NCBI RefSeq assembly: GCF_000284115.1
Contig: NC_017080.1
Span: 2,340,001-2,372,000, forward strand
DNA from: Phycisphaera mikurensis NBRC 102666
GTDB lineage: Bacteria > Planctomycetota > Phycisphaerae > Phycisphaerales > Phycisphaeraceae
Direction of reading: 5' to 3'
DNA length: 32,000 nt
Both the position numbers and the translations under genes were made by a program. The notes under the pieces are model-generated. The model searched no databases. It was not told the DNA's origin and saw only the letters and a program-made list of their open reading frames with translations. Of the stretch, positions 278-30,761 are shown in pieces (position 1 is the stretch's first letter; every line of letters starts with the position of its first letter).

Positions 278-323
278 CCGCGGACCGTCGTCGCTGGCAA
301 GCGAAAACGTCCACGGTCCGCGG
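278..323. repeat. 46-bp hairpin element copy 1 (CCGCGGACCG-N26-CGGTCCGCGG), terminator-like position after groEL-1
   Basis: Perfect 10-bp inverted arms at 278-287 and 314-323, with a 26-nt spacer, followed by CGCTTTC. It lies 12 bp after the groEL stop. Confidence 0.85.
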
Positions 324-388
324 CGCTTTCCCGACCCGCTCCGGCGAATCCGACTTCAATCAGAACCAACTCCCACAGGAACGAACCC

Positions 389-709
389 ATGGCCAAGAAG
401 GCCCCCACCAAGACCAAGTCCACCACCCTCAACCCCCTCGACGACCGCGTGATCGTCCAGCCCCAAGAGGCCGAGGAGCGCACCGCCTCGGGCATCTACC
501 TGCCCGAGGGCGCCAAGGAGAAGCCCCAGACCGGCACCATCCTCTCCGCCGGCCCCGGCAAGCGCGACGACGACGGCAAGCGCATCGCCATGAACGTCAA
601 GAAGGGCGACACCGTCCTCTACGGCAAGTACAGCGGCACCGAGATCGAGATCGACGGCGACAAGCTGATGATCATGCGGGAGTCGGAGCTGCTCGGCGTG
701 TACGAGTGA
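389..709 (+). CDS. groES: Co-chaperonin GroES
   Basis: 106-aa ORF with an ATG start. Motifs LNPLDDRVIVQP...ASGIYLPE...KPQTGTILSAGPG...GDTVLYGKYSGTEI are typical of Cpn10. Confidence 0.97.
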   Translation: MAKKAPTKTKSTTLNPLDDRVIVQPQEAEERTASGIYLPEGAKEKPQTGTILSAGPGKRDDDGKRIAMNVKKGDTVLYGKYSGTEIEIDGDKLMIMRESELLGVYE

Positions 710-710
710 G

Positions 711-830
711 CAAGAGCGAAGAAGCGAAGAAGCGAAGAAGGGAGGAAGTCAGACAGCGGGCGTCGCTCGATGGACTTCCAAGCCTCACCTGCTGACTTCT
801 CCGCTTCCCAACTTCTTCGCTTCTTCGCTT
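711..830. repeat. Long imperfect inverted repeat built from GA-rich 8-mers (GCGAAGAA x3 ... TTCTTCGC x2), groES-groEL intercistronic
   Basis: The left arm caagagcgaagaagcgaagaagcgaagaagggaggaagtcag (711-752) is complementary to ctgacttctccgcttcccaacttcttcgcttcttcgcttg (791-830). The loop is ~38 nt. Confidence 0.8.
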
Positions 831-879
831 GAGCGGCGCAGCCGCTGCCCCCCCACCACGAACCAAAGGAGCCAAAACC

Positions 880-2493
880 ATGGCAACCAAGCAAATGATC
901 TTCGGCGCCGAAGCGCAGTCCGAACTCAGAAGCGGCCTCGAGAAGCTCGCCGCCGCCGTCAAGATCACGATGGGCCCCACCGGCCGCAACGTGATCCTCC
1001 AGAAGTCCTACGGCGGCCCCGCCGTCACCAAGGACGGCGTCTCCGTCGCCAAGGAAGTGGAGCTGGAGTCTCCCTTCGAGAACATGGGCGCGAAGATGGT
1101 CGTCGAGGTCGCCAAGAAGACCGGCGACAAGGCCGGCGACGGGACGACCACCTCGGTCGTCCTCGCCGAGGCGATCTACAAAGAGGGCCTGCGGCACGCG
1201 TCCGCGGGCGCGAACAGCGTCGCGCTGCAGCGCGGCATCAACGCCGCCGCCGAGGCCGCCAGCGAGGCGATCAAGGCGATGGCCACCAAGGTCTCCGGCC
1301 GCGACGACCTGGAGAAGGTCGCCACCGTCTCCGCCAACCACGACCGCCACATCGGCCGGCTGCTCGCCGAGGCGATCGACAAGGTCGGCCACGACGGCGT
1401 CGTCGAGATCGAGGAGGGCAAGACCGCCGAGACCGAGCTGGAGTACGTCGAGGGCATGCAGTTCGACAAGGGCTACCTGTCGCCCTACTTCATGACCGAC
1501 CCCAACCACGCCGAGGCGGTCCTGGAGGACACGCTGATCCTCGTCCACGAGAAGAAGATCAGCAACCTGCCCGACCTCCTGCCGCTGCTCAACAAGGTGG
1601 CGATGGCGCAGAAGCCCCTGCTCATCATCGCCGAGGACGTGGAGAACGAGGCCCTCGCGGCCCTGGTCGTCAACCGCCTCCGCGGCGTGCTCAAGGTCGC
1701 GGCCGTCAAGGCCCCCGGCTTCGGCGACCGCCGCAAGGCCATGCTCGGCGACATCGCCGCGCTCACCGGCGCGACCTTCATCTCCGAGGATCTGGGGATC
1801 CAGCTGGACAGCCTCGAGCTGGATCAGCTCGGCACCGCCCGCAAGGTGACCGTCGGCAAGGACAACACGACGATCATCGAGGGCGGCGGCAAGAAAGCCG
1901 ACGTCGACGGCCGCGTCAAGCAGATCCAGAAGCAGATCGAGACCACCACCAGCGACTACGACCGCGAGAAGCTCCAGGAGCGTCTCGCGAAGCTGACCGG
2001 CGGCGTGGCGATCCTCAACGTCGGCGGCGCGACCGAGACGGCGATGAAGGAGGCCAAGGACCGCGTCGACGACGCGCTGCACGCCACCAAGGCCGCCGCG
2101 GCCGAGGGCTACGTGCCCGGCGGCGGCGTGGCCCTGGTGCGAGCCATTGCGTCGGTGAAGGCCGGCCGCAAGGGTGCCAAAGGCGACGAGAAGCTCGGCT
2201 TCGACGTCGTCGCCGCGGCGCTGGAGGTGCCCCTCCGCCAGATCGTCGACAACACCGGCGAGGACGGCCACGTCGTCGTCGCCGAGGTGAAGGCCCACGA
2301 GGGTGCCTACGGCTACAACGCCGGCACGGCGAAGTACGAGGACCTCGTGCAGGCCGGCATCATCGACCCGGCGCTCGTCTCGCGCACCGCCCTGCTCAAC
2401 GCGGCCTCGGTCGCGGGGCTGATGCTCACGACCAACGTCCTGGTCACCGACCTCGACGACGAGGAGGAGCCGGTGAACGGGGCGACGGCGTAG
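880..2493 (+). CDS. groEL: Chaperonin GroEL (second copy, no GGM tail)
   Basis: ATG at 880 is preceded by [18 protein letters not shown]...GPTGRNVIL...AGDGTTT...[17 protein letters not shown]...GGVAL is a full-length Cpn60 signature. The ORF-track start at 829 falls inside the upstream hairpin and was rejected. Confidence 0.97.
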
Positions 2494-2495
2494 CT

Positions 2496-2516
2496 CCGCC
2501 CGGCGGCGCCGGGCGG
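2496..2516 (+). terminator. GC-rich hairpin immediately after groEL stop (candidate intrinsic terminator, no U-tract)
   Basis: CCGCCCGGC-GGC-GCCGGGCGG: 9-bp perfect stem, 3-nt loop, starting 3 nt after the stop codon. Confidence 0.4.
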
Positions 2517-2900
2517 GGTGAGGTGCGGTCGGGATCGGGCTGCGCCCGGCGGAGCCCGGCAGCGCGGGGGAGCTGTCGGTTCTGTCGTGGCGCTGCCCCG
2601 AGAAGCCCGGCCCACCGAGCCGGGGCCGAGTGACGCCGGCACCTTGCAGCCTCTACTCGATCGCTCCACGGCCCAACGGCCTGGAGCGGCATGACTACGA
2701 TCCGGCCGAGCACGCGAACGCCTTCCCGGCGGCGTGCGAGACAAGCCGGTCCCCCTGAGCGGTCCCCCGCCGCTGCCCCGGGAAACGCATCCGCCGGAGC
2801 CATCGGGCTCCGAGCGCAGCGGCGGGTCCCCCGCCGCGGAGACCGACGGCTCCCCCGACTGACCCCGCGAAGCGGGGGTCCCCCCGCGAAGCGGAGTTCC

Positions 2901-4049
2901 ATGGCGACCCAACGCGACTACTACGAAGTGCTCTCCGTCGAGCGGACCGCCGACGGCGACACCATCAAGCGGCAGTACCGCAAGATGGCGATGAAGTACC
3001 ACCCCGACCGCAACCCCGGCGACGCGGCGGCGGAGGCCAGCTTCAAGGAGTGCGCCGAGGCGTACGAGGTGCTCTCCGACGCCGAGAAGCGGCAGCGCTA
3101 CGACCGCCACGGCCACGCCGGCCTCCGCGGCGGCCCCGCCGGCCACGACTTCTCGGGCATGAACGCCCACGACATCTCCGACCTCTTCGCCGACATCTTC
3201 GGCGGCGGGGGCGGCCGCCGTGGCGGCGGCGGGCGGGCCGGCGGCGTGCAGCGGGGGTACGACCTGGAGACGCAGACCTCCATCACGCTCGCGGAGGTGC
3301 TCGAGGGGGTCGAACAGGAGATCGAGTTCACCCGTCAGGACGTCTGCGAGACCTGCAAGGGCAGCGGCGGGAAGCCCGGCACCCAGCCCCTGGACTGCAC
3401 CATGTGCGGCGGCGCCGGGAAGGTCCGCCGCGGCGGCGGCTTCTTCCAGATGATCACGCCGTGTCCGAACTGCAACGGCACCGGCAAGGCCTACCCCTCG
3501 CCCTGCACGGCGTGCAGCGGTGAGGGCCGGGTGCCGCTCAAGCGGCAGCTGTCGGTCAAGATCCCACCGGGCATCCAGGACACCCAGGTGATCCGCGTGA
3601 GCGGCGAGGGCGAGCCCGGCGTCGCGCCCGGCGGGGCCGTCGGCCCCCGCGGCGACCTGCACGTGGTCGTCCGCGTGGAGGAGCACGAGCTTTTCGAGCG
3701 GCACGACGACCACCTGCTGCTGAAGATGCCCGTCGGCTTCACCCAGGCCGCGCTGGGCGCCACCGTCGCGGTCCCGACGCTCACCGGCGACGCGAGCGTC
3801 GACATCGGCGCCGGCAGCCAGGACGGGGACCTGGTCCGCCTCCGGGGCGAAGGCCTCCCGAACCTCCGGACGAACCGGCGCGGCGACCTCGTCGTCGAGC
3901 TGCACCTGGAGGTCCCCAAGAAGCTGACCCCGCGCCAGCGCGAGCTCCTCGAGCTCTACGCCCAGACCGAGGAGACCGACGGCCGCCCCGCCGACTCCAC
4001 GCCCCGCCAGCAGGGCTTTTGGGACAAGATCAAGACCTACCTGCAATAG
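2901..4049 (+). CDS. dnaJ: Molecular chaperone DnaJ
   Basis: ATG at 2901 is preceded by GGAG. The J-domain reads YYEVLSV...KRQYRKMAMKYHPDRNPGD. It is followed by a G-rich linker, four CxxCxGxG zinc-finger motifs and a C-terminal substrate domain. Confidence 0.95.
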   Translation: MATQRDYYEVLSVERTADGDTIKRQYRKMAMKYHPDRNPGDAAAEASFKECAEAYEVLSDAEKRQRYDRHGHAGLRGGPAGHDFSGMNAHDISDLFADIFGGGGGRRGGGGRAGGVQRGYDLETQTSITLAEVLEGVEQEIEFTRQDVCETCKGSGGKPGTQPLDCTMCGGAGKVRRGGGFFQMITPCPNCNGTGKAYPSPCTACSGEGRVPLKRQLSVKIPPGIQDTQVIRVSGEGEPGVAPGGAVGPRGDLHVVVRVEEHELFERHDDHLLLKMPVGFTQAALGATVAVPTLTGDASVDIGAGSQDGDLVRLRGEGLPNLRTNRRGDLVVELHLEVPKKLTPRQRELLELYAQTEETDGRPADSTPRQQGFWDKIKTYLQ

Positions 4050-4123
4050 CAACCGACGACGCCGCGCGTCCCGCCGCCACCGCCCTTCCCGATGAACCGG
4101 CCGGGGGAGTGAAGAAGTTCCGC

Positions 4124-4714
4124 ATGGACCACGACCAGAACCACGACAGCGACACCGAGGACCTGACGCCCGAGGGCGAGGAGCCGACCTTCGACTTCGA
4201 CGAGCTCGCCGAGGAGATGCCCGGCGAAACCCCGCTCGACGGCGTCGAGGAGCCCGACGCGGCCGGCGAGCTCGCCAACCTCCGCGAGCAGGTCGCCGAT
4301 CTGGACGGCCGCCTCAAACGCACCGCCGCCGACTACCAGAACTACGTCCGCCGCAGCGCCCGCGAGGTGCTCTCGGCGCGGGAGCAGGGCAAGGCCGAGC
4401 TCGTCCGCGCGCTCATCACCAGCCTCGACCACCTCGACCGCGCCGTGGCCGTCGACGCCGCGAGCACCACCGCCGCCGAGGTGCAGCGGGGCGTTTCCTC
4501 GACCATCGAGGAGCTGGGCAAGGCCATGGCCGCCGCGGGGGTGACCAAGCTCACCCCCGCCCCCGGCGACGAGTTCGATCCGAACATCCACGAGGCCCTG
4601 ATGCACACCCCCGCCGAGGGCGTCGAGAGCGGCAAGGTCGCGGCCACCCTCATGCCCGGCTACCTCGTCGGCGAGGTTCCGGTCCGACCCGCCCAGGTCT
4701 CCGTCGCTCAATAA
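4124..4714 (+). CDS. grpE: Nucleotide exchange factor GrpE
   Basis: ATG at 4124 (the 4019 track start overlaps dnaJ). Acidic N-terminus, coiled coil with RTAADYQNYVRRSARE (the GrpE signature region), and a C-terminal beta domain ...GYLVGEVPVRPAQV. Confidence 0.9.
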   Translation: MDHDQNHDSDTEDLTPEGEEPTFDFDELAEEMPGETPLDGVEEPDAAGELANLREQVADLDGRLKRTAADYQNYVRRSAREVLSAREQGKAELVRALITSLDHLDRAVAVDAASTTAAEVQRGVSSTIEELGKAMAAAGVTKLTPAPGDEFDPNIHEALMHTPAEGVESGKVAATLMPGYLVGEVPVRPAQVSVAQ

Positions 4715-4721
4715 GTCGCCC

Positions 4722-5120
4722 ATGCCCACGTACGAATACGTCTGCAAGTCCTGCGGCCAGCCCACCGAGCACTTCGCCTCGATGAGCGCCAAGCCGCTGC
4801 GGAAGTGCCCGCACTGCGGGAAGAACCAGCTGGAGCGCCAGATCGGCACCGGCGCCGGCTTCATCTTCAAGGGCGGCGGCTTCTACGAGACCGACTACCG
4901 GAGCGAGGGCTACAAGAAGTCCGCCAAGGAAGACCAAGCCTCCTCCGAGCCCAAGGGGGAGCCCAAGGGGGACAAGCCCGCGAGCGGCGAGAAGCCGCCG
5001 CCGAAGGGCGACGGCGGCGGCAAGCCCGACACGCCCGGCCAGCCTGCGCCGAAGAAGAAGGCCGAGCCCAAGCCCGCCGCCGGCAAGCCGGCCCCCAAGA
5101 AGCCCAGGGGCGACGGCTGA
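4722..5120 (+). CDS. FmdB-family zinc-ribbon protein with K/P/G-rich C-terminal tail
   Basis: MPTYEYVCKSCG...CPHCG...L.RQIG is the typical CxxC...CxxC FmdB/Zn-ribbon N-terminus. The tail is low-complexity and K/P/G-rich. Confidence 0.8.
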   Translation: MPTYEYVCKSCGQPTEHFASMSAKPLRKCPHCGKNQLERQIGTGAGFIFKGGGFYETDYRSEGYKKSAKEDQASSEPKGEPKGDKPASGEKPPPKGDGGGKPDTPGQPAPKKKAEPKPAAGKPAPKKPRGDG

Positions 5121-5175
5121 GCCGACGCCGCGGACGCGGCACCCCGATCGCGCAGAAGCGGGGACCTCGACCCGC

Positions 5176-6669
5176 TCAGCGGGGCGTGGCCGCCTCGCTC
5201 TCCACCACGCGGAGCCGGGCGATCCCCGCCTTGCAACCCCAGACGAGGCTGCGGTCGGGCAGGATCGACTGCTGGTTGCCCCCGTCGAAGGCGGCATCGC
5301 CCGCGTCGCCGAGGTCGAAAGCCCAGGCCGTTTCGCCGGTCGTCCAATCCAGCGCCCGATAGACGGAGCGGCCCGCCTCCACGCCCTGCCCGTAGAGCAG
5401 GCCCGTGGCCGTGCTGACGGTGAGCACGTTGTTGAGGTTCACGTCCCCGCGGCTCCAGTCCAGGCGCAGCTCGGCCGCGTCGGCATCCCAGCGAGCCCGC
5501 TGCACGCCGGGCAGCGGGTCATCGACCGGGAAGATGCCGTTCCACTGTGCGACGGCGACGGCGTCACCCCACGCGGCGGGCGAGTTCTCGGTGCTGAAGC
5601 CGCGGCCCGCCGGCGTGGCGAAGGGCAACTCCAGCACGCCCGCCACCCGCGGGTCGAGCGCCTCGCCGCCGGCGACCCGCGGCTCCCACCCCGGGGGGAT
5701 CTCGCCGCGCCAGAAGGCAACGAGCCGGTTGGGGGTGCGGCCGTCGACGATCACCACCACGTCCTCGAGCAGCGTCGGCGTGGTGCCGCTGCCGGTGCCC
5801 TCCGCGCCCGCCAGCACGCGCAGCAGCTCGAGCCCGGGCCGCACCCGCCGCGGGGCTTTCGGGCCGCGCGTGTCGTATGCGGCGTGCCACACCGGCTCGA
5901 ACCGCTTGCCGGTCCAGCGAACCTTCGTCATCGCCAGGTCGCTCACGAGGTACACGCCGCCGTCGGGGTCGACCGGCTGGCTGTTGTGGCAGGCGATGTC
6001 GCCGTCCACCGAGGCGAGGTCCAACGAAGCCGCGAGAGCGAGCGCGGGAGCGGGCGAGCCGAGCCCCTCCACACGCAACGCCACGAGGTGGCCGGCGTCG
6101 GTGAGAACCAGCAGGTGGCCGTCGTAGGCGGCGGTGAGCGTCTGAGGCTTCCCGGGCACCGCCGCCGGCAGCACGAAGCGGGCCAGCTCGGCGATGGGGC
6201 TCTCCGCCTCGCCCGGCCGCCGGTCGCCGAAGAGCATCACCCGTCGCTGATTCGGATCGAGCACCGCCAGGCGGTTGCCGCGGAGCAGCACGCAGTTCCA
6301 GTGCAGGTCCATCTCGCGATCGATGCGGTGCTTGTCGACCAGCTCGAAGCGGGGCCCGTCCACGAGGACCTTCGTGACGTGCGTCACGGTCGCGCCCCAG
6401 ACCGGCACCGCCCCTCCGGCGTAGGGCTCGCCCACCAGCGACCAGCACGATGGACCGTTGGCCCGCGTCCGGATCACCTGCAGCTCCAGCGCCTCGCCCG
6501 CCACCGGCCCCGGCAGCGGCGTCGAGCCGGTGGCCGCCGGGTCGTGGTGAAACGTCGGCGAAGCCGACGCCGCGAGGAACGGGTTCCGCGGCGCCGGCTC
6601 GGCGGCGCCGGCGCCCGCCACGCCGACCGCGGCGGCGGCGAGGGCGGCAAGGGCGAAGCGCGGTCGCAT
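5176..6669 (-). CDS. Secreted hypothetical protein (signal peptide; function unknown)
   Basis: An internal ATG at 6669 gives MRPRFALAALAAAAVGVAGAGAAEP, a clear signal peptide. The reading frame is long and coherent. I recognise no family motif. Confidence 0.6.
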   Translation of the reverse strand: MRPRFALAALAAAAVGVAGAGAAEPAPRNPFLAASASPTFHHDPAATGSTPLPGPVAGEALELQVIRTRANGPSCWSLVGEPYAGGAVPVWGATVTHVTKVLVDGPRFELVDKHRIDREMDLHWNCVLLRGNRLAVLDPNQRRVMLFGDRRPGEAESPIAELARFVLPAAVPGKPQTLTAAYDGHLLVLTDAGHLVALRVEGLGSPAPALALAASLDLASVDGDIACHNSQPVDPDGGVYLVSDLAMTKVRWTGKRFEPVWHAAYDTRGPKAPRRVRPGLELLRVLAGAEGTGSGTTPTLLEDVVVIVDGRTPNRLVAFWRGEIPPGWEPRVAGGEALDPRVAGVLELPFATPAGRGFSTENSPAAWGDAVAVAQWNGIFPVDDPLPGVQRARWDADAAELRLDWSRGDVNLNNVLTVSTATGLLYGQGVEAGRSVYRALDWTTGETAWAFDLGDAGDAAFDGGNQQSILPDRSLVWGCKAGIARLRVVESEAATPR

Positions 6670-6885
6670 GCGGAGACGGTAGATGCCGCGGGCGGGCGGA
6701 GCCGGCGGTGTCGCCGCCGGGCGCTGCCCGAGCGTGGCCCGGGGGAAAGAGCCGTGTCGGAGCGGGGTCGGCGCAGCCTCTTGTGTCGGGCCGCGGCATC
6801 GCACGAACGCCCGGGTCCGACGGACGGAACCTTCGCGATCACCCGGCCCGCATCGGGGCGCAACGCGGCTGGATCGTCGTCGGGT

Positions 6886-8049
6886 TCAACGGACGGTGCT
6901 TCGTGGCTGTGCGGCCCGCTCCCGGCGAGCCCGCCTCCCCGCCCCCCGGTCCAGCGGCGACACCACCCCCAGCACCCCGCGCCCGCCGCCCGAGGTCAGG
7001 TGCAGGTACAGCATGGTCGTCTTGACGCTCTTGTGCCCCAGCAGCTCCTGCACCGTGCGGATGTCGTACCCATCCTCCAGCAGGTGCGTCGCGAACGAGT
7101 GCCGCAGCGTGTGGCACGACGCCTTCTTGTCGATCCCCGCCCGCTTCACCGCCGCAGCCACCGCCTTCTGCAGCGTGTTCTCGTGGAGGTGCCGGCGGAC
7201 CTCCACGTCCTGCGAATCCGCCAGCCCCAACCGCTCGAGAGCCGCCTGCATCATCGCGGGATCCTCCAGCGGCGCACCCCCCGACGCCGCCGAGCCGTCC
7301 ATGAACAGCCGCATCACCGGCGTGGGCGTCACCCGCGGGCTCGCGAACACGTACTGCCACGCCAGCGAGCGGCTCGCCGCCGGGGTCTTCCTCACCTGCG
7401 CGTACGGCATCGGCACCCAGCCCACCGACCCGCCCCGCTTCAAGTCCGCCTCGTGGCGGCGGTTCCGCCACGCCAGCTGCTCCCCCATCGCCGCGATGCA
7501 CCGCTCCGGCAGCAGCGCTGCGCGGTCCTTCGCGCCCTTCCCGTCCCGCACCATCACCCGCCCCCGCTCCAGGCTCACGTCCTTCACGCGCAGGCGGGTG
7601 ACCTCCGTCAGCCGCATCCCCGCCCCGTACAGCAGGTTCGCCATCAGCCCGTGCATCCGCGTGACGAGCGGATCCGCCGGCGCCTCCGCGACCGCATCCA
7701 GCACCGCCGCCACCTCCCCCCGGCTCAGCACCTCCGGCAGCCGCGCCGGCTTCTTCGCCCGCTTCGCCTCGAACGCCCCGAGCTTCTGATCGAGCACCTT
7801 CTCGTACAGGAACACCAGCGCGTTGAGCGCCTGGTTCTGCGTGGAAGCCGCGACCTTCCGCTCCACCGCAAGTTGCGTCAGGAACGCCTCGACCCCGGCC
7901 TCGCCAAGCGCCTCGGGCGACACCCACGCCCCAGCCACCTTCCGGTGATGCCGCAGGTAGCGCTCGATCCACCCCGTATACGCCTGCTCCGTGCGGAAGC
8001 TGTAATGCCCCCGCCGCAGCGCTTCGTGAACTTCCTCCATCAGCCCCAT
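6886..8049 (-). CDS. intI: Integron integrase IntI (tyrosine recombinase with IntI-specific extra domain)
   Basis: Motifs: [53 protein letters not shown]...[10 protein letters not shown], an IntI-specific segment (...LAWQYVFAS...), [27 protein letters not shown] and TTMLYLH...GGGRGV..SPLD. The catalytic R-K-H-R-H-Y residues all appear to be present. Confidence 0.93.
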
Positions 8050-8227
8050 GGGGCCACGCTAGATTCTGCATTTGATGCCGTCAATATGGTACGATATGCA
8101 GAAATCGTTCGGCCACGACCCGACCCAGGACTTCAGGAACGGCTTGACAGCCCACGCCGGACAGATCAAACTCTTCCACAAGCGGTAGACGTTCTGCCGA
8201 CAGCATTCTGTATAATCACTGTTAGGC
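8050..8227 (+). other. attI region; crossover box GTTAGGC at 8221-8227
   Basis: This is the intI-proximal intergenic region. It ends in GTTAGGCCGC, identical to the R' boxes of the attC sites. TATAAT lies at 8211-8216 and TTGACA at 8144-8149. An inverted repeat TTCTGCAT...ATGCAGAA lies at ~8064-8103. Confidence 0.6.
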
Positions 8228-8264
8228 CGCGGCAGCATTGCTGTGTCTCCCAGGAACTGCAACA

Positions 8265-8627
8265 ATGAGTCGGCGTAGCAGAGCCAAATTGGTGACGAAG
8301 AGCTCGGACATCGGCAGCCGGATCCTCAACTCTGCTCAGCTGAACGCTAGTTCTGCTGTCCCACGTTTCCTAGCTGGCCGCGAAGCACTAGAGTCCGCTC
8401 CTGCTCCAGCGGCCAAAAAGAAGAAAAAGCGTATCAAGCTGAAGCCGTTCGCCTGCGACGTTTGCGGCGAAGTTTTCAGCCTTAAAGCTATGGATAGGCA
8501 CAGAAGGCATGTCCATTTCATACCAACGCCACAACAGTCTGCTATGGTGAAATGCCCGCACTGCCGGAAAGCCGTGAGGCAGTGCAATCTGCGAAAGCAC
8601 ATGGAAAAAATGCATCCTCAATCTTGA
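8265..8627 (+). CDS. Cassette 1: small basic protein with two C2H2-like zinc fingers and a poly-K stretch
   Basis: ATG at 8265. KKKKKRIK is followed by FACDVCGEVFSLKAMDRHRRHVH and VKCPHCRKAVRQCNLRKHMEKMH (C-x2-C ... H-x3/4-H). The region looks lower in G+C than its surroundings by eye. Confidence 0.7.
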   Translation: MSRRSRAKLVTKSSDIGSRILNSAQLNASSAVPRFLAGREALESAPAPAAKKKKKRIKLKPFACDVCGEVFSLKAMDRHRRHVHFIPTPQQSAMVKCPHCRKAVRQCNLRKHMEKMHPQS

Positions 8628-8648
8628 AGGCCAGCTCGCCGGCGTGCG

Positions 8649-8757
8649 GCCTAACCAGGCGTTGCAGCGGACCGGCAGTGTGTGCGGGTTTACAGTCCGC
8701 TCCGGGAACCAGGCCCGCCGTCAGTTCGGCCGGCCGCTGAACGCTTCTTCGTTAGGT
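8649..8757 (+). repeat. attC 1 (R'' GCCTAAC, R' GTTAGGT)
   Basis: 109-bp imperfect palindrome: gcctaaccaggcgttgcagcggaccggc...ggccggccgctgaacgcttcttcgttaggt. Confidence 0.88.
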
Positions 8758-8770
8758 GCCTTGATCGACC

Positions 8771-9082
8771 GTGAGATTCACCTGGACCGATGCGGTGATC
8801 TTGACCGTCATCTGCGACCGGAATGAGTCTGGCGGGTCGAGTTACAGCTCGATTCTCACTCACGGTGACTTCTATGCCCGGTGCATCCTCACCGACCTGG
8901 AGTACTTCGGTGGCCTGCACAGGCTGATCGCGGCTGGGCACATCTACCTGGACGACGAACTGCTGTTTGCCGAAGACGGAGCTCTTGACTACTACTCATC
9001 TCCACCTGATGGTCTTGAGTACGCGGAGCAGCTCCTGGAACACATGATGGCGTTTCTCGGCGTCACTTGGGCGGGCACCTAA
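8771..9082 (+). CDS. Cassette 2: hypothetical protein (103 aa)
   Basis: GTG start 14 nt after the cassette boundary. The TAA stop lies inside the R'' box (ACCTAAC), which is typical of cassette ORFs. No recognisable family. Confidence 0.5.
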   Translation: MRFTWTDAVILTVICDRNESGGSSYSSILTHGDFYARCILTDLEYFGGLHRLIAAGHIYLDDELLFAEDGALDYYSSPPDGLEYAEQLLEHMMAFLGVTWAGT

Positions 9083-9185
9083 CCAGGCGTTGCAGCGGAC
9101 CGGCAGTGCCCGCGGGTTTACAGTGCTCCCCCGGTTTCAGCTGCGTCGTCGCTCTGGCCGGCCGCTGAACGCTTCTTCGTTAGGC
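9077..9185 (+). repeat. attC 2 (R'' ACCTAAC, R' GTTAGGC)
   Basis: 109 bp. The core arms match attC 1. The right half is of the ...ccggtttcagctgcgtcgtcgctctggccggccgctgaacg... subtype. Confidence 0.88.
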
Positions 9186-9234
9186 GGCGATGAACGCGGT
9201 CCGGTCTTCCCTGTGTGTCCGCCGTCGCGCACGT

Positions 9235-9280
9235 CCGCGGACCGTCGGCGGTTCCGGCCGCCCGTCCCTGCGGTCCGCGG
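9235..9280. repeat. 46-bp hairpin element copy 2 (inside ORF-less cassette 3)
   Basis: CCGCGGACCG at 9235-9244 and CGGTCCGCGG at 9271-9280. The spacer is exactly 26 nt. Confidence 0.85.
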
Positions 9281-9412
9281 CGCGGTCGTCCGCTGCGGGC
9301 TGGCCGCACCTCGTCGGCCGGGCGTCGTCGCCGCTCGTTTCGCTGCGGTCGGCGTCGCGGCCCCGGCTCGCCGGCCATCCGGTCGGCGGCCCTCGCCGCT
9401 CTACGCGTCGCC

Positions 9413-9521
9413 GCCTAACCAGGCGTTGCAGCGGACCGGCAGGGTGTGCGGGTTTACAGTGCTCTTCCTGTTCCAGGCCCGCCGTCAATTCGGCCGGCCG
9501 CTGAACACTTCTTCGTTAGGC
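9413..9521 (+). repeat. attC 3 (R'' GCCTAAC, R' GTTAGGC)
   Basis: 109 bp, same subtype as attC 1. Confidence 0.88.
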
Positions 9522-9571
9522 CGCACCCCAAGCGGGCTTGTGCTGCTGCGCACTCGCGCCGTGTTGCCAAC

Positions 9572-9617
9572 CCGCGGACCGTCGCGGGTTTCGGCCCCTT
9601 TGCCCCACGGTCCGCGG
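9572..9617. repeat. 46-bp hairpin element copy 3 (inside ORF-less cassette 4)
   Basis: CCGCGGACCG at 9572-9581 and CGGTCCGCGG at 9608-9617, with a 26-nt spacer. Confidence 0.85.
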
Positions 9618-9755
9618 CGCCTTCTCCTGCTGCGGGTCCGCCGCGGCCGGCTCAATCCGCGGCCTCGCGGGTCCAGCGTCGCGGTTGCCGTTGCGGTTCA
9701 AGCTCCGCCCCGCTCTCGGTCAGGGCGCCGCCGTCTTCCACGCTCCCCGCGTGCG

Positions 9756-9865
9756 GCCCAACCAGGCGTTGCAGCGGACCGGGGGTGTGCGCGGGTTTAC
9801 AGTGCTTCCCCCGGATCCAGGCCGCCGTTGGGGTCGCCCGGCCGCTGATTGCTTCTTCGTTAGGC
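9756..9865 (+). repeat. attC 4 (R'' GCCCAAC, R' GTTAGGC)
   Basis: 110 bp. This is a third subtype (...cccccggatccaggccgccgttggggtcgcccggccgctgattgcttcttcgttaggc). Confidence 0.85.
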
Positions 9866-9874
9866 CGCATCAAT

Positions 9875-10225
9875 ATGGCTGGATACATTTCCTACTTTGA
9901 GATAGGGGCGGATGATGCAGGCAGTAGCCGTGACTTTTTCCGGGAACTCTTTGGCTGGCCGTTCCACTCGATGGGGGACGGCGACGAGGGCTACTTTGAG
10001 ACTCCCGGCGTCAAGGCTGGCCTGCATGGCGGCGACCAACATGCAGTTTTCTTGCCTTTCTTCGCTGTTGACGACCTCGCATCCGCGGCCGATCGGGTGA
10101 ATCAGCTCGGTGGGCATGCGGGCGAGGTTTCTGAAGAATCGGGCTTCGGCAGGTTCTGTATGTGCCAAGACCCACAGGGGGTCCGGTTCGGGTTGCACTC
10201 CGCTCCCACGGCAGGCGCGGCCTAA
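9875..10225 (+). CDS. Cassette 5: VOC (glyoxalase/bleomycin-resistance/dioxygenase) family protein
   Basis: ATG 10 nt after the cassette boundary. YFEIGADD...FFRELFGW.........G..AGLHG.......FFAVDDL....DRV..LGG........GFGRF..C.DPQG..FGL is the typical single-domain VOC fold pattern. The TAA stop lies inside R''. Confidence 0.8.
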   Translation: MAGYISYFEIGADDAGSSRDFFRELFGWPFHSMGDGDEGYFETPGVKAGLHGGDQHAVFLPFFAVDDLASAADRVNQLGGHAGEVSEESGFGRFCMCQDPQGVRFGLHSAPTAGAA

Positions 10226-10324: not shown

Positions 10325-10373
10325 GGCGGTGAACACGGTCCGTTCTTCCCCGTGTGTCCGCCGTCGCGCACGT

Positions 10374-10419
10374 CCGCGGACCGTCGGCGGTTCCGGCCGC
10401 TCGTCCCCGCGGTCCGCGG
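10374..10419. repeat. 46-bp hairpin element copy 4 (inside ORF-less cassette 6)
   Basis: Arms at 10374-10383 and 10410-10419, with a 26-nt spacer. Confidence 0.85.
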
Positions 10420-10660: not shown

Positions 10661-10665
10661 GTACC

Positions 10666-11019: not shown

Positions 11020-11023
11020 GCAC

Positions 11024-11180: not shown

Positions 11181-11226
11181 CCGCGGACCGTGCCCCGTTT
11201 CGCCGCCTTTCCGCTCCGGTCCGCGG
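11181..11226. repeat. 46-bp hairpin element copy 5 (inside ORF-less cassette 8)
   Basis: Arms at 11181-11190 and 11217-11226, with a 26-nt spacer. Confidence 0.85.
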
Positions 11227-11405: not shown

Positions 11406-11422
11406 CCCAACAGGTTCATCAG

Positions 11423-11829: not shown

Positions 11830-11994
11830 CGCACCCAAAGCGGCCTTGTGCTGCTCCGCCAAGCGCCGTCTCGCCCATCCGCGGACTGTCGCGGGTTCTG
11901 GCCAGTCGGCCCCACCTCCCGCGACGCGGCGGCCTGGTGGCGTCTGCCGCCCTCTATCCACCTCTGGCTTCGGGTTCAAGCCCTTGGAGTTCCT

Positions 11995-13802: not shown

Positions 13803-13848
13803 CCGCGGACCGTGCCCCGTTTCGCCGCCTTTCCGCTCCGGTCCGCGG
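13803..13848. repeat. 46-bp hairpin element copy 6 (inside ORF-less cassette 12)
   Basis: Arms at 13803-13812 and 13839-13848, with a 26-nt spacer. The sequence is identical to copy 5. Confidence 0.85.
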
Positions 13849-19473: not shown

Positions 19474-20003
19474 GCGGCGACGCCACGCCGGGGCAGGAGG
19501 CCCCGAAGCGGCCGGCCCCGGCGACGCGGCGGGCCAAGCGGCTGCGCGGCTGGCTGATCGCCGCGGGGCTGGCGGAGGTGGCCGCGGCGAAGCGGCTGGC
19601 CCGCGCGCTGATCGATGCCGAGGGGGAGCACGACGCCTCGGCCTGGATCGACCGGATCGAGGCGCGGCTGCCACGCGAGAACGCGGGGGCGTGGCTGTCG
19701 GGCCTCGCGGCCGCGGACCGCCCGGCGGAAACGCTCCAGGAGACCCCGGTCCGCGGCCCGGCCGGGGTCGGCACCGACGGCGGCGGCACCGACGGCGGCG
19801 GCGTGCCGCTGCTGCCGCCAACGCGTCCCTCCGAGATGAAGCGGCAGCCGCTGGGGCGGCTGCCGGCGGTGCTGCGGGGCGGGGCCTGGGTGCTGGCGAA
19901 CCGCTGGTCGCTGCCCAACCGGGTGGGCCCGCGGATCTCGCGGAGCCTCTGGATGGGGCGGAGCGTGCCCAGCGACCCGACGCCGCCGTCCGCCGCCGAG
20001 TGA
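19470..20003 (+). CDS. ORF resembling the N-terminal cytoplasmic region of OpgH, in a different frame from the opgH body (split gene, frameshift or sequencing error)
   Basis: The GTG start overlaps the opgG stop (GTGA). ...RWSLPNRVGPRISRSLWMGRSVPS resembles E. coli OpgH ...[21 protein letters not shown], which precedes TM1. The frame ends at 20003, 70 nt before the opgH ORF. Confidence 0.45.
   Translation: MSGDATPGQEAPKRPAPATRRAKRLRGWLIAAGLAEVAAAKRLARALIDAEGEHDASAWIDRIEARLPRENAGAWLSGLAAADRPAETLQETPVRGPAGVGTDGGGTDGGGVPLLPPTRPSEMKRQPLGRLPAVLRGGAWVLANRWSLPNRVGPRISRSLWMGRSVPSDPTPPSAAE
19711..19756. repeat. 46-bp hairpin element copy 7 (in frame inside the opgH N-terminal ORF)
   Basis: Arms at 19711-19720 and 19747-19756, with a 26-nt spacer. 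It translates as AADRPAETLQETPVRG. Confidence 0.85.
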
Positions 20004-23891: not shown

Positions 23892-23937
23892 CCGCGGACC
23901 GCAGCGCAAATTCACCGACGGACTCCGCGGTCCGCGG
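23892..23937. repeat. 46-bp hairpin element copy 8 (terminator-like position after the 23947-25629 gene)
   Basis: Arms at 23892-23901 and 23928-23937, with a 26-nt spacer. It lies 10 nt downstream of the minus-strand stop. Confidence 0.85.
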
Positions 23938-26163: not shown

Positions 26164-26400
26164 CGAGGAAGAGACGGGGTCAGCGGGGGGAAGAGACGAA
26201 GCGACGTTTGGAGGGGTGCCGCGGACCGGGGCTGCGTGGTTCGCGAAGGTCGGTGTCGCGGGGTCGGCCCGTGCGGGGTGAGAGACGAAGAGACGGAGTC
26301 AGCGGGAGGCGGGGGTGTCGGAAGCGGTCGGCGAAGCCGCCGCCCCTGCCTGTCTTCGTCTCTCCGTCTCTTCGTCTCTTCGTTTCTTCGTTTCTCCCCC
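26164..26400. repeat. Intergenic block of GA-rich 8-mer repeats forming a long inverted repeat (arms 26280-26298 / 26362-26380)
   Basis: There are two GA-rich copies: gaggaagagacggggtcagcgggg at ~26165 and gagagacgaagagacggagtcagcggg at ~26280. A CT-rich tract follows at 26346-26400 (cgtctctt cgtctctt cgtttctt cgtttctc). The arms match at 18 of 19 positions. Confidence 0.75.
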
Positions 26401-26416: not shown

Positions 26417-27562
26417 GTGGAACCTTCCCCGCGCCCCCACTTCTTCGACCACACGCCCGACTCGCTCGGCGACGTCGTCGCGGGCTGGGGGATGCCGCGG
26501 TTCCGCGCGAAGCAGGTCTTCCACTGGGTGTACGGCCGCGGCGTTGTGGACCCGCTGGAGATGGGCAACCTCTCCGCCGCGGACCGCGGGCGCCTCAAGG
26601 AGAATCTGGCCTTCATCCGCGGCCGCGTGCTGCGGCGGCAGGACGCCAGCGACGGCACCCACAAGCTGCTCGTCGGCTGGGGCGCGGCCGCCGACGACCC
26701 GCTGGCGCTGGCGCCGGTCGCCGACAAAAACGGCTTCTTCGCCGACGCCACCGAGTGCGTGATGATCCCCGCCGGAGCGGGCCGTTCGGGCGGGGATGCG
26801 GGTCCGCGGGGTGCCGCTCGTCGCACCGCCTGCCTCTCCAGCCAGGTCGGCTGCCCGGTGGGCTGCTCCTTCTGCGCCTCGGGGCTCGGCGGCCTGGACG
26901 GGAACCTCACCGCCGGGCAGATCGTGCAGCAGGCCTGGATGCTCGACCGCGAGCTGAAGACGAGCGGGGATCCCGTCGGCCGGCTGACCAACGTCGTCTT
27001 CATGGGGATGGGCGAGCCGATGGCCAACCTCAAAGCGGTCGTCCCGGCCTTGCGGACGCTGACTGCCGCGTGGGGGATGAACCTCTCCGCCCGCAAGATC
27101 ACCGTCTCCACCGTCGGCGTCGTCCCGGGGATCCGCAGACTCGGCGAGCTGGACCTGCCGGTCACCCTGGCCCTCTCGCTGCACGCCCCCAACGACGAGC
27201 TCCGCCGCCAGATCATCCCCTGGGCCAGCTTCGTCACCATCGAGGAGCTGGTCGCCGCCTGCCGCGGCTACTTCGAGGCCACCGGCCGCGAGGTCACGCT
27301 GGAGTACATCCTCCTCGGCGGCTTCAACGACGGGCCGCAGCACGCCGCCGAGCTGGCGGCCGTCGCGAAGCGCCTGCGCAGCAACGTCAACCTCATCCGA
27401 TACAACGAGGTGAGGGGTCTGCCGCACCAGCGGCCGAGCAGCGAGAACGTCCACCGCTTCCAGAAGGTCCTCCGCGACCGCGGCGTGAACGCCCACCTGA
27501 GGGCCAGCCGCGGCCGCGACATCGCCGCCGCCTGCGGCCAGCTGCGCTACGCCGGCCCGTGA
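26417..27562 (+). CDS. rlmN: 23S rRNA/tRNA (adenine-C2)-methyltransferase RlmN (radical SAM)
   Basis: Motifs: GMPRFRAKQVFHWVY, CLSSQVGCPVGCSFCASG (CxxxCxxC), NVVFMGMGEPMAN, TVSTVG, LALSLHAPNDELR and NLIRYN. GTG at 26417 is the first start after the repeat block. The track start at 26315 lies inside the repeat. Confidence 0.92.
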   Translation: MEPSPRPHFFDHTPDSLGDVVAGWGMPRFRAKQVFHWVYGRGVVDPLEMGNLSAADRGRLKENLAFIRGRVLRRQDASDGTHKLLVGWGAAADDPLALAPVADKNGFFADATECVMIPAGAGRSGGDAGPRGAARRTACLSSQVGCPVGCSFCASGLGGLDGNLTAGQIVQQAWMLDRELKTSGDPVGRLTNVVFMGMGEPMANLKAVVPALRTLTAAWGMNLSARKITVSTVGVVPGIRRLGELDLPVTLALSLHAPNDELRRQIIPWASFVTIEELVAACRGYFEATGREVTLEYILLGGFNDGPQHAAELAAVAKRLRSNVNLIRYNEVRGLPHQRPSSENVHRFQKVLRDRGVNAHLRASRGRDIAAACGQLRYAGP

Positions 27563-27740: not shown

Positions 27741-27890
27741 GTCGGGGAGAGATCCGGTGACAAGTGGCGACCCGCCCACCCCCGCGAGGGGCGAGCCGCC
27801 GGCCGCGTCAATCGCTCGGGCTGCACAACAGCTCCGTCCGTCGGGGCTCCGCTGCGCCGGGTCCCCGCATCCGGCCGATAGCCCCCGACC

Positions 27891-28646
27891 GTGCTCGCCG
27901 TCGACCAACTCGTGAAGGCCTTCCCGACCGGTGAGGGTCCGGACGTGCTCGCGGTGCAGGGGGTGAGCTTCTCCGTCGCGGCCGGGGAGTGCTACGGGCT
28001 GCTCGGGCCCAACGGGGCGGGGAAGACGACGCTCTTGCGGATGATCGCGACGCTGGTCACGCCGACGTCGGGGCACGCGGCGGTCGACGGTTTCCGCGGG
28101 GATGAGCGGCCGGAGCGGCTCCGCTCGCGGCTGGGCTTCATGAGCGGGAACACGCGGCTGTACCGGCGTCTCACCGGCCGGGAGCTGCTCGCGTACTTCG
28201 GGCGGCTGAACCGCATGAGCGAGCCGCGGATCCGGGAGCGGACGGCGGAGCTCTCGGCGGCGTTCGGCCTCGGCGAGTTCCTCGACCGCCGCTGCGGCGG
28301 GTACTCCACGGGGCAGGCGCAGCGGGTGAGCATCGCGCGGGTCATGCTGCACGAGCCACCGCTTCTGATCCTCGACGAGCCGACGCTGGGCCTGGACGTG
28401 ATGAGCGCCCGGGCGATGCTCGACTTCGTGGAGCGCGCACGCGACGCGGGCACCGCGATCGTGTTCTCGACGCACCACATGAGCGAAGCGGAGCAGCTCT
28501 GCACCCGCGTGGGCTTCCTCTACCGAGGCCGCCTGCTGGCCGAGGACACGCCGGCTCGGCTCTGCACCGCGGCGGGGACCTCGACGCTGCGCGACGCCTT
28601 CCTCGCGATGGCCGATGCGGCGGACGCCGACGAGGCGCCGGCATGA
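27891..28646 (+). CDS. ABC transporter ATP-binding protein (NatA-like)
   Basis: GTG start. Walker A GPNGAGKTT, Q-loop, signature YSTGQAQRVSIAR, Walker B LLILDEPT, and an H-loop in the STHHM region. Confidence 0.93.
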   Translation: MLAVDQLVKAFPTGEGPDVLAVQGVSFSVAAGECYGLLGPNGAGKTTLLRMIATLVTPTSGHAAVDGFRGDERPERLRSRLGFMSGNTRLYRRLTGRELLAYFGRLNRMSEPRIRERTAELSAAFGLGEFLDRRCGGYSTGQAQRVSIARVMLHEPPLLILDEPTLGLDVMSARAMLDFVERARDAGTAIVFSTHHMSEAEQLCTRVGFLYRGRLLAEDTPARLCTAAGTSTLRDAFLAMADAADADEAPA

Positions 28647-28658
28647 CTGGGGCACGCA

Positions 28659-28679
28659 GGGCAGGTCGGCGACCTGCCC
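28659..28679 (+). other. Intercistronic hairpin between ABC ATPase and permease genes
   Basis: GGGCAGGTC-GGC-GACCTGCCC: 9-bp perfect stem, 3-nt loop. Confidence 0.35.
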
Positions 28680-28703
28680 GACGCGGCGTTCCGTGAGACC
28701 CGA

Positions 28704-30761
28704 ATGAACCTCCACACCATCCTCACCATCGCCGCCAAGGAGCTGCGGGAGACGCTGCGCGACCGGCGGACGCTGATGGCGATGGTCGGCATCCCGCTCT
28801 TGCTCTACCCGGTGATCCTGCTGGCGGGCACGCAGGCGATCGTCTACCGGCAGGCGAAGACGGACGGGCAGGTCGCTCGCGTGGCCGTCGCCGAGGACCT
28901 CGACGGGCAGCTGGTCGAGCGGCTGCGGGCGGCCGAAGGCATCGAGCTGGAGGCGGAGACGGCGGGATCCGCGGACCGCGTGGCTTCGGGCGATCTGGAC
29001 GCGACGGTCCGCGGAACCGGCGAGGCCGACGGCACCGAGACACTGGAGCTGCTGTTCGACTCCACCGTCCCCCGGTCGGCGGCTGCGCAATCGCGGATCC
29101 GCGACGTGGTCGCGAACCTCGCAGATGAGCGGATTACCGAGCGGCTCGAGGAAGCCGGCCTCCCACCCGGAACGGCGCAGCCGTTCCGGGTGGAGACCCG
29201 CGACGCCGCCCCCGCCCGCAAGCGGGCCGGCAACCTGCTCGGCAACGCGCTGCCGATGCTGATGATCCTGATGCTCGGGCTCGGCGCGTTCTACCCCGCG
29301 GTCGACCTGACCGCCGGCGAGAAGGAACGCGGCACCTTCGAGACGCTGCTCTCCACACCCACGGCCAAGGGCGAGATCGTGTGGGGCAAGTTTCTGGCGG
29401 TCGTGGGGCTGTCGCTGGCGACGGGGCTGCTGAATCTCGGCTCGATGGCGGTGACGCTGTGGTTCCAGCTGGCGCAGCTGCAGGCGGCGGGAGCCGGCAA
29501 CGCCGGGGGCGGTCCGCTGGACCTCGCCTCGCTGACGATCTCGCCGCTGGACCTCGGCGTCATGCTGCTGATCCTGGTCCCGCTCGCGGTGTTCATCTCG
29601 GCGGCGATGATGTCGCTGGCGCTGCTCGCCCGGGAGTTCAAGGAGGCGAGCAACTACCTCTCGCCGTTCTTCCTCCTGATGGTGGCACCCGCGGCGCTGG
29701 TGGTCGCGGCGGGGGTGGAGCTGGACGGAGCCGTGGTCCTCGTGCCGATCGCCAACGCGACGCTGCTGTTCAAGAACCTCCTGATGAGCACGGCGACCTG
29801 GCCGCAGGTGCTGGGGACCTTCGTCTCGACGGCGGTCGCGGCGGTGGCGGCCCTGCGGCTGGCGGTGTTGGTGTTCGGCCGCGAGGACGTGGTGCTCGCC
29901 GGCGACGGCGGCCTGCCCGCGTCGCTGAAGCGGAGCAGCTGGCCGCGGCGGAGGGTGCCGACGGCCACGCTGTCGCTGGCCGCTTTCGCGGTCGGCCTGC
30001 TCGTCTACGTGAACCTCGGCTCGCTGCTGCAGGCTGAAGCGCTGCTGCCGGGGCTGATCGCGAGCCAGTGGATGATCCTGGTGCCGATCGCCGTCGGTGC
30101 GCTGTGGCTCTTCAAGGTGGACGTCGCGGCGAGCTTGAAGCTGCGGCTCCCGCGGCCCGGAGCGATCGCTGGAGCCGTGCTGATGGCGTGCGGCGGGCTG
30201 GTGCTTTCGCAGCAGCTGGCGTGGGTGCAATCCTTCGTCCTCGACGTGCCCGAGGCCTTCGCCGGCGGCACGGCGCCGATCGTCGAGCACCCCTCGCTGG
30301 CGCTTGTGCTCTTCGCCGTCGCCGTGTCGCCCGCCGTCTGCGAGGAGGTCTTCTTCCGCGGGACGCTGCTCGCCGGGCTCGAGGAGAAGCTGCGGCCGTG
30401 GGTCGCCATCGTGCTCGCCAGCCTGCTGTTCGGCCTCTTCCACCTCTACCTGCACCGCATCCTCATCACCGCCGCACTGGGCATCGCCATCACCTGGGTC
30501 GCCTGGCGGAGCCGGTCGATCTGGCCGGGGATGCTGTTCCACCTCATCAACAACGGCGTCGCCGTGCTGGCCGTGCGGGAGGTTCTGCCGCCGGGGCTGA
30601 TGGGCTGGCTGGAGCGGGTGGCTCCGGTCGAGAACGGCTACCCCTGGCCGGTCGTGGCGGCAGCGGCGGCCGTGTTCGCCGCCGGGGCCGCCGTCGTCGC
30701 GAGGCTTGGCCGACCCCGCGCTGCCTCCTCCCTCCCGGGTGCCACGCCCGCTCGGGCGTGA
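28704..30761 (+). CDS. Fusion protein: NatB-like ABC-2 permease (N-terminal ~400 aa) + CPBP-family intramembrane glutamic endopeptidase (C-terminal)
   Basis: The N-terminus has TM1, a large loop, and AGEKERGTFETLLSTP (the NatB/ABC2_membrane_3 hallmark). The C-terminus has the CPBP motifs EEVFFRG, FGLFH and HLINN. Confidence 0.88.
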   Translation: MNLHTILTIAAKELRETLRDRRTLMAMVGIPLLLYPVILLAGTQAIVYRQAKTDGQVARVAVAEDLDGQLVERLRAAEGIELEAETAGSADRVASGDLDATVRGTGEADGTETLELLFDSTVPRSAAAQSRIRDVVANLADERITERLEEAGLPPGTAQPFRVETRDAAPARKRAGNLLGNALPMLMILMLGLGAFYPAVDLTAGEKERGTFETLLSTPTAKGEIVWGKFLAVVGLSLATGLLNLGSMAVTLWFQLAQLQAAGAGNAGGGPLDLASLTISPLDLGVMLLILVPLAVFISAAMMSLALLAREFKEASNYLSPFFLLMVAPAALVVAAGVELDGAVVLVPIANATLLFKNLLMSTATWPQVLGTFVSTAVAAVAALRLAVLVFGREDVVLAGDGGLPASLKRSSWPRRRVPTATLSLAAFAVGLLVYVNLGSLLQAEALLPGLIASQWMILVPIAVGALWLFKVDVAASLKLRLPRPGAIAGAVLMACGGLVLSQQLAWVQSFVLDVPEAFAGGTAPIVEHPSLALVLFAVAVSPAVCEEVFFRGTLLAGLEEKLRPWVAIVLASLLFGLFHLYLHRILITAALGIAITWVAWRSRSIWPGMLFHLINNGVAVLAVREVLPPGLMGWLERVAPVENGYPWPVVAAAAAVFAAGAAVVARLGRPRAASSLPGATPARA
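28969..29014. repeat. 46-bp hairpin element copy 9 (in frame inside the ABC-2 permease loop)
   Basis: Arms at 28969-28978 and 29005-29014, with a 26-nt spacer. It translates as SADRVASGDLDATVRG. Confidence 0.85.

Follow-up and report, generated by a model that had tools for sequence, protein, structure and literature searches.

This locus raises the question of why one inverted motif recurs, always with the same spacing, across a stretch of the genome of Phycisphaera mikurensis NBRC 102666, and how its copies came to stand where they do. The window, by which we mean the whole stretch of 32,000 nucleotides that was analysed (contig NC_017080.1, positions 2,340,001 to 2,372,000; the same DNA is also present in GCA_014207395.1), carries nine perfect copies of CCGCGGACCG-N26-CGGTCCGCGG, at 278, 9235, 9572, 10374, 11181, 13803, 19711, 23892 and 28969. 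These coordinates from an exact search are the nine that an earlier note, made from the letters alone, had listed, and 100 dinucleotide-preserving shuffles of the window gave no match. When up to three arm mismatches were allowed, only one extra site appeared in the window, at 26577 within rlmN, while the chance expectation is 0.04 sites per 32 kb, and therefore the sites inside genes are also beyond chance. Exact single arms numbered 20 in the window, 18 of them belonging to the nine N26 pairs; outside the window 79 of about 90 arms were paired in this way, and the orphan arms were mostly halves of one-mismatch copies.

The 46-bp motif appears to be an undescribed, genome-wide signal. Our preferred reading, to which we give a probability of about 0.45, is that it is a dyad site of two 23-bp halves, read on duplex DNA by a putative dimeric factor and both maintained and created by selection or drive, like DNA uptake sequences. 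The earlier note had not recognised a described family, which agrees with what was found: the sole Rfam match at gathering threshold was a tRNA, with nothing at the elements up to E = 5, a literature search on the arm sequence returned primers only, and one on “Phycisphaera mikurensis” with “palindromic” returned nothing relevant. Viral contigs gave no match to the arm-pair pattern. Avoidance of restriction sites was also considered and rejected; the sequences CCGCGG and CGGWCCG show no depletion in the DNA around the elements.

Abundance was counted in a census sample of 139 kb that was not selected by the pattern, consisting of the window, an 8.8-kb extension and loci of five relatives reached through homologous proteins. 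The sample contained 30, 9, 2 and 2 sites with N26 at 0, 1, 2 and 3 mismatches, so that the exact motif is over-represented and perfect copies outnumber near-misses, as is expected of DNA uptake sequences (DUS) and uptake signal sequences (USS). Mismatches in the arms fell mainly at positions 9-10. Among the other spacings from 18 to 34 no site occurred at one mismatch or less, save two N27 sites in one assembly that shows frameshifts. In P. mikurensis and the relatives nearest to it, a copy occurs every 3.6 kb or so. Family-bearing DNA totalling 263 kb had 80 exact arm pairs, of which 79 were spaced by 26 nt, while unrelated high-GC genomes, searched with gaps of 12-40 nt, showed flat spacer lengths (3 of 121 at 26 nt among the matches listed). 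It means that the arms are not simply frequent words with no preferred spacing, which the earlier note had named as the way in which its idea could fail, and the preferred spacing together with the copies in relatives' DNA bears out a real, non-random family. Some relatives' sequences are error-prone or low-coverage assemblies. The frameshift-showing assembly is that of locus L176, where rlmN is split into two genes; it holds two of three 27-nt spacers at one mismatch or less (16238 and 21072), the third being in L181, and these are probably indel errors and not true spacing variants.

The motif was present in all loci of the relatives L176, L177, L178, L183 and L184 (75-92% protein identity). 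No N26 copy was found in 13 kb of the 72% relative L181 or in 22 kb of the Algisphaera-like locus L182, and neither locus had an alternative recurrent dyad. Arm “dialects” were considered too, and no differing arm sequence was present in the outgroup loci L181, L182, L185 and L186. Searching metagenomes for the N26 pattern yielded 53 contigs, some 35 of which belong to one low-coverage marine assembly, ORXU01. One motif-bearing contig of this assembly encodes a MamK-like actin closest (76-77%) to those of Planctomycetota metagenome-assembled genomes (MAGs), and the loci of these MAG relatives were without the motif. Because L181, L182 and the MAG relatives lack it, the distribution is narrow and possibly patchy.

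The element is best described as two abutting 23-bp half-sites forming a 46-bp dyad, and this explains the fixed 26-nt “spacer” without a loop. From the arm inward, a half-site has the consensus CCGCGGACCG-Y-S-G-S-S-S-n-W-W-n-S-G-G, or in a coarser form, with A at -2, CCGCGGACCG-Y-SGSSS-WWW-SSS. Its outer 10-11 bp do not vary, and its inner 12-13 bp show a composition pattern only: on a background of 0.29, the AT fraction of the symmetrised spacer is 0.52 at position 1, falls to 0.15-0.25 over positions 2-6, rises to 0.58-0.67 at 8-9 and is back at about 0.2 over 11-13. T-rich and A-rich character is combined independently between the two halves, and no covariation exists at spacer positions 2-8. 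Outside the arm, position -2 is A in 47% of flanks and position -1 almost never is. Neither a target-site duplication nor outward pairing of the flanks beyond the arms was found. The weak GTTTCG core that the earlier note had seen in the spacers is genuine, the oriented consensus being TCGSSGGTTYCGGCC. Its statements on spacer identity could be reproduced as well: the spacers at 11181 and 13803 are identical and those at 9235 and 10374 are two substitutions apart, both pairs being duplicated integron cassettes.

The copies of the window, on a gene map based on GC3-based calling of open reading frames (ORFs), Pfam and public gene calls, are as follows.

278..323: copy 1, perfect arms, 11 nt past the groEL-1 stop (266) and 65 nt ahead of the groES start (389)
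9235..9280: copy 2, perfect arms, 49 nt into the 336-bp integron cassette 9186-9522
9572..9617: copy 3, perfect arms, 50 nt into cassette 9522-9866
10374..10419: copy 4, in a duplicate of the cassette of copy 2, spacer 2 substitutions off copy 2
11181..11226: copy 5, perfect arms, 48 nt into cassette 11133-11406
11879..11924: degenerate copy, CCGCGGACTG-N26-CCTCCCGCGA, 5 arm mismatches, at an equal offset in cassette 11830-13058
13803..13848: copy 6, in a duplicate of the cassette of copy 5, spacer identical to copy 5
19711..19756: copy 7, between mdoG (stop 19473) and a glycosyltransferase gene (start 20074), in a doubtful called 177-aa ORF, frame AADR…PVRG
23892..23937: copy 8, in a minus-strand operon, with the stop of the 23947 gene 9 nt upstream and the start of an outer membrane protein (OMP) gene (23871) 20 nt downstream
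26577..26622: near-copy inside rlmN, 3 arm mismatches, frame AADR…FIRG; its L176 orthologue has 2 mismatches
28969..29014: copy 9, within the gene of the ABC-2/CPBP permease (aa 88-103 = SADRVASGDLDATVRG), shared in position by four species

Most of the contexts described earlier hold on this map, namely the two copies just after stop codons (278 and 23892), the five in cassettes and the one truly inside a gene at 28969; the copy at 19711, which had also been placed within a reading frame, lies only in the doubtful 177-aa ORF. A 2481-aa minus-strand ORF over that place was rejected as its host frame, being a high-GC artefact.

Beyond single contexts, 23 copies lie 1-30 nt (median about 10) past the stop of a gene that reads towards the copy. 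The next start codon often follows 7-22 nt after the element; for example, the GFO_IDH stop is followed by 2 nt, the element, 7 nt and the purQ ATG. Of the copies in unselected loci that have at most one mismatch, roughly 40% fall within genes that are called or predicted, and 10 of 12 of the in-gene copies use one frame, xCC GCG GAC CGn…nCG GTC CGC GGn (ADR…VRG). The polarity of the interior is random relative to the transcription of the upstream gene, ends of T·G type and C·A type being equally common. The five cassette copies stand 48-50 nt from the cassette 5' end, and these cassettes share a homologous 5' part of about 100 nt. Some further contexts were seen in other loci. Copies of L183 (14045-14090 and 17089-17134) abut gene boundaries exactly: one codes for the final 15 residues of Ddl, whose stop follows 1 nt beyond the copy, and another touches the lpxI ATG. 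In marine contigs (L151, L166) the ADR…VRG frame occurs again at protein termini.

The copy between GFO_IDH and purQ can be compared among species. In P. mikurensis it lies just past the window end (extrapolated window position 32768, position 14065 of L179). Its arms are intact (20/20) in P. mikurensis, L176 and L178, and L177 has a half-copy, while the spacers of P. mikurensis and L176 share 9 of 26 positions (about 35% identity). The 7-nt junction on the purQ side is alike in P. mikurensis, L176 and the half-copy of L177 (GACAGAT, GACAAAT, GAGGAAT), and the junction of L178 is 13 nt. This conservation of the arms, together with the 30:9:2:2 mismatch spectrum, shows that arms and spacing are under strong purifying constraint or continual correction.

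The in-gene copies of the ABC-2 permease, an FAD/FeS oxidase and a DUF7379 protein show an origin in place, by substitution and with no change of length. For the permease, the spacer codes for the G-D-L-D-A motif of the whole family; 14 homologues are equal in length at this place and share the motif in the form G-x-[LI]-D-A-x-V, and only the four closest species have the arms. The oxidase gene reads GCC GCG GAC CGY…GCG GTC CGC GGR (AADR…AVRG) in P. mikurensis and L183, and GCG GCG GAG AAG…AAG TCC CGC GGC in L184, a relative that has the family elsewhere; 12 further homologues are without indel. The difference amounts to 7 nucleotide and 4 amino-acid changes at equal length and no indel, so both arms were built around a native spacer. 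In the DUF7379 gene, the arms match at 19/20 in L183 and 18/20 in P. mikurensis and are absent from L184, and the left-arm mismatch falls in a Gly codon conserved in all three species. The SppA copies of L176 and L178 sit in a linker that has near-equal length in P. mikurensis.

We prefer recognition on duplex DNA with selection or drive because the element has dyad symmetry, invariant arms, a single spacing and AT patches that are symmetric and not complementary, and because it shows no transcriptional polarity, about 40% of copies lie in genes with a frame bias, and copies have originated in place at poorly conserved residues. A putative dimeric or two-fold symmetric protein would make base contacts at the outer arms and would sense the shape or bendability of the two AT-rich patches, which flank the dyad at a distance of about 9 bp from each other. 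New copies can be generated in place by directional point substitution, and others would have entered short intergenic gaps or be carried by cassettes and larger repeats. The accumulation would be driven by selection or molecular drive acting for the motif as such, as in DNA uptake sequences, Chi and HIP1, and transposition alone would be insufficient for it. Candidate roles are those of a signal for uptake or self-recognition, of a site at gene ends that manages the nucleoid or supercoiling, and of a roadblock. The transcribed arms can form a GC stem of 10-11 bp, and a secondary, REP-like effect on mRNA might be possible. Of the roles proposed earlier, a bipartite protein-binding site fits best, yet the sites are genome-wide, at gene ends and in genes, which is not the picture of a promoter operator.

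Uptake sequences, the DUS of Neisseria and the USS of Pasteurellaceae, are a parallel in evolutionary behaviour. AT-rich tracts in helical phase stand on the flanks of the USS core, and a motif, or dialects of it, is common to related species. In general, DUS and USS are short exact motifs with hundreds to thousands of copies among which perfect ones dominate (PMC2817400, PMC2346458, PMC3630211). Across species 34.5-70% of copies are coding; their reading-frame bias follows the preferred codons, they sit where residues are poorly conserved, and inverted pairs occur after genes (PMC2817400, PMC2346458). The present motif is likewise exact and abundant, lies both in and between genes, has coding copies that arise by substitution at poorly conserved residues, has a reading-frame bias and forms inverted pairs after genes. 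The differences are that it is always an inverted pair at exactly 26 bp, with single arms not enriched, and that it has 46 bp instead of 9-12 bp. While a single copy is the functional unit in DUS and USS, here nearly all arms come in pairs, 18 of the 20 that the window holds and 79 of about 90 outside it.

Other exact motifs were compared. HIP1 (GCGATCGC) of cyanobacteria, Chi and KOPS are kept abundant by selection or biased repair, arise in situ in both coding and non-coding DNA and are conserved at orthologous positions; they are single 8-mers, none is a fixed-spacing bipartite dyad, and Chi and KOPS are strand-oriented. CIRCE, TTAGCACTC-N9-GAGTGCTAA, has perfect inverted arms at fixed spacing and a dimeric reader. 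It resembles our element in this respect, and one copy of the present motif lies in the groEL-groES gap, but operators are few and stand at the promoters of a regulon, while the present motif occurs about once per 3.6 kb, mostly post-stop or in-gene.

Several observations weigh against the preferred reading. The P. mikurensis DNA examined is about 40 kb, and elsewhere it is about 0.3 kb per copy. Single arms lack enrichment and the pair is the invariable unit, unlike DUS and USS. The purQ/GFO_IDH gap is 4 nt in the outgroup L181 and 55-80 nt in the clade, which suggests some insertion. Copies are carried by integron cassettes, and in L178 (4904-5817 and about 20050-20300) a copy lies at the centre of a repeat of about 190 bp whose inverted arms measure 37 nt (CCGAGGCAAGCCACGGATGGGTCGGATGGATCGGATG) and which may be a composite mobile element carrying the motif; at 4904-5817 tandem CACAGGTGCCCC runs stand alongside this repeat. 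Spacers resemble each other more than expected (81 pairs at 16/26 or more, 1-2 when shuffled), which fits common descent as well as binding preference. Covariation exists, limited to spacer position 1/26 (T-A or C-G, 0.57 observed and 0.38 expected), and spacers fold slightly better than shuffled ones (mean z = -0.57, p = 0.002). The last two leave some selection for a hairpin or cruciform conceivable, and shared ancestry could also produce them; for the covariation and the spacer likeness as well, the source may be ancestry or function. A patchy distribution would also suit a horizontally moving element with its own enzyme. Because the L181 gap, the carriage by cassettes and repeats and the spacer likeness stand beside the in-gene cases, duplication or insertion and creation in place both seem to contribute. 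Intergenic presence/absence sites between L176 and L178 are too diverged to set insertion boundaries.

A rival reading is a non-autonomous mobile element like a REPIN, a pair of repetitive extragenic palindromic (REP) sequences, or a miniature inverted-repeat transposable element (MITE), which we judge less likely. Here the arms would be the sites at which a trans-acting transposase, a REP-associated tyrosine transposase (RAYT) or another, binds and cleaves, recognising them as a hairpin in single-stranded DNA, and intergenic spread would be followed by vertical persistence. The high copy number with a lineage-restricted, patchy range, the apparent purQ/GFO_IDH insertion, the carriage in cassettes and at the centre of the 190-bp inverted-repeat element, and spacers more alike than shuffled ones with a common TCGSSGGTTYCGG half all speak for it. 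REPINs are also built of two conserved inverted units with a spacer differing in each copy, and they persist by vertical descent (PMC3337134; bioRxiv 10.1101/2022.05.22.493013). Likewise, REPs, REPINs and bacterial interspersed mosaic elements (BIMEs) are palindromic repeats that occur in abundance between cistrons and close to the 3' ends of genes. But each REP is itself an imperfect palindrome (about 20-40 nt) and extragenic, and REPIN spacers keep a hairpin and have several lengths. The arms here have 10-11 nt and are not palindromic hairpins themselves, the spacer is unpaired and not maintained as a hairpin, and there is a single spacing instead of 5-11 per REPIN group (PMC3337134). Furthermore, about 40% of the copies lie in genes, three of these made by substitution around native spacers with no length change, the family shows no target-site duplication or flank pairing, and the 30:9:2:2 spectrum is unlike that of decaying insertions.

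No Y1_Tnp (PF01797) was present among the Pfam-annotated genes of about 180 kb, and this is weak evidence because a RAYT is single-copy. The gene between the paired copies in L159 was tried as a transposase and proved to be a small membrane protein, and the IS630, IS4 and IS66 transposases of the sampled loci were dismissed since their ends are unrelated to the arms. On the whole, the mobile hairpin of the REP/RAYT type, one of the roles that the earlier note had offered, has lost ground to the in-place copies in genes, the missing target duplication and a spacer without pairing constraint.

Less probable still is an element acting in RNA, with the 10-11 bp GC stem after the stop codon serving as terminator, attenuator, barrier to 3'-exonuclease or processing site, possibly as target of a sequence-specific RNA-binding protein. 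The 23 copies 1-30 nt past a stop would suit it, and so would the energy (-18.7 kcal/mol for the stem alone, about -21 to -31 kcal/mol for whole elements) and the 1/26 covariation, which lengthens the stem to 11 bp. Intrinsic terminators have in common with the element a GC-rich stem soon past a stop codon, but their loop is 3-8 nt and a T-run follows. Here the loop is 24-26 nt, no T-run stands downstream of any of the nine copies, and a terminator scan of positions 1-20,000, which hold seven of the nine, called no element. Many copies stand within operons, where the next start is 7-22 nt away, or well inside a gene, so the terminator module suggested earlier is weakened. A structural role also needs no invariant 20-nt sequence, the polarity is random relative to transcription with U·G-type and C·A-type ends equally frequent, and the AT patches are symmetric, not complementary.

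A recombination site of the integron, attC-like or a secondary site of IntI, is hardly credible: the fixed 48-50 nt offset of five copies and the degenerate one, and an attC L-box (CAGCGGACCGG) that has the 8-mer GCGGACCG in common with the arm and differs from the full 10-mer at one position (an overlap that may be coincidence), are outweighed by most copies lying far from any integron in five genomes, by an element without the GTTRRRY/RYYYAAC boxes, and by one or two related cassette families with homologous 5' ends of about 100 nt, which explain the cassette copies. In attC the R''/L''…L'/R' boxes with RYYYAAC…GTTRRRY stand at the cassette ends, whereas the element lies 48-50 nt inside the 5' end, and the true attC sites (about 108 bp, GCCTAAC…GTTAGGC; window 8650-15060) are separate from it.

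Invariant inverted arms, a single long spacing, a place at gene ends and the several coordinated substitutions that made copies inside conserved genes imply a strong sequence-specific force acting chromosome-wide, which could be binding-site selection or transmission bias. Bacterial genomes rarely tolerate exact repeats in hundreds, and REP/REPIN, uptake sequences, Chi and HIP1 each revealed a dedicated machinery. The present motif mixes features of these systems and fits none of them. A bolder version, which we regard as doubtful, would make it a new class of genome-wide “self” signal of bipartite build in the Planctomycetota: a dimer would read the 46-bp dyad, and its recognition bias would rewrite native sequence, that of conserved enzymes included. 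The candidate dimeric readers would be an uptake receptor, a repair or defence complex that discriminates self from non-self, or a chromosome-organising factor. It would then be without precedent in two ways, as an uptake-sequence-like molecular drive beyond the Neisseriaceae and Pasteurellaceae and as one that acts on a spaced dyad. To our knowledge, the DNA transactions of this planctomycete lineage are almost unstudied. The motif is a ready bait for its predicted protein, and it offers a natural system for the rate at which a 20-nt specification is written into coding DNA.

The remaining features of the window are listed below.

Up to 266: groEL1 (stop 266)
389-709: groES, followed by groEL2, dnaJ, grpE and a zinc-ribbon gene
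6886-8049, minus strand: integron integrase intI, 387 aa
8221: attI GTTAGGC, with at least 12 cassettes onward to about 15,120
Past the integron: sodA, FAD oxidase, mdoG and glycosyltransferase genes
Minus strand, following these: pseudouridine synthase, then OMP and a 560-aa gene
Last part: rlmN, a tRNA, an ABC ATPase, the ABC-2/CPBP permease (28704-30761) and a tandem-repeat region to the window end

This chromosomal integron contains duplicates of several short cassette families. Its first cassette (8265-8627) has a low GC content (about 57%); its product, which the public annotation does not include, has 120 aa, two C2H2-type zinc-finger motifs and a tract rich in lysine. This zinc-finger protein was considered as the binder of the element and dropped, adjacency being its only support. 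Another cassette, 14119-14637, codes for an ankyrin-repeat protein.

Repeats (30818-32000) fill the space from the ABC-2 permease to purQ, which measures only 16-389 nt in relatives. They comprise a 46-bp tandem array at 30910-31417 (11 copies, 96% identity) and then 217-bp repeats, and units of the region recur inverted as arms of 42-59 nt. The period of the tandem array equals the length of the element, yet the array is without arm sequence. Long inverted repeats with 31-38 nt arms and GA-rich/TC-rich runs of AGCGAAGA and TCTTCGTC lie in the groES/groEL2 gap (715-829) and upstream of rlmN (26281-26387), and these two look like a second hairpin family.

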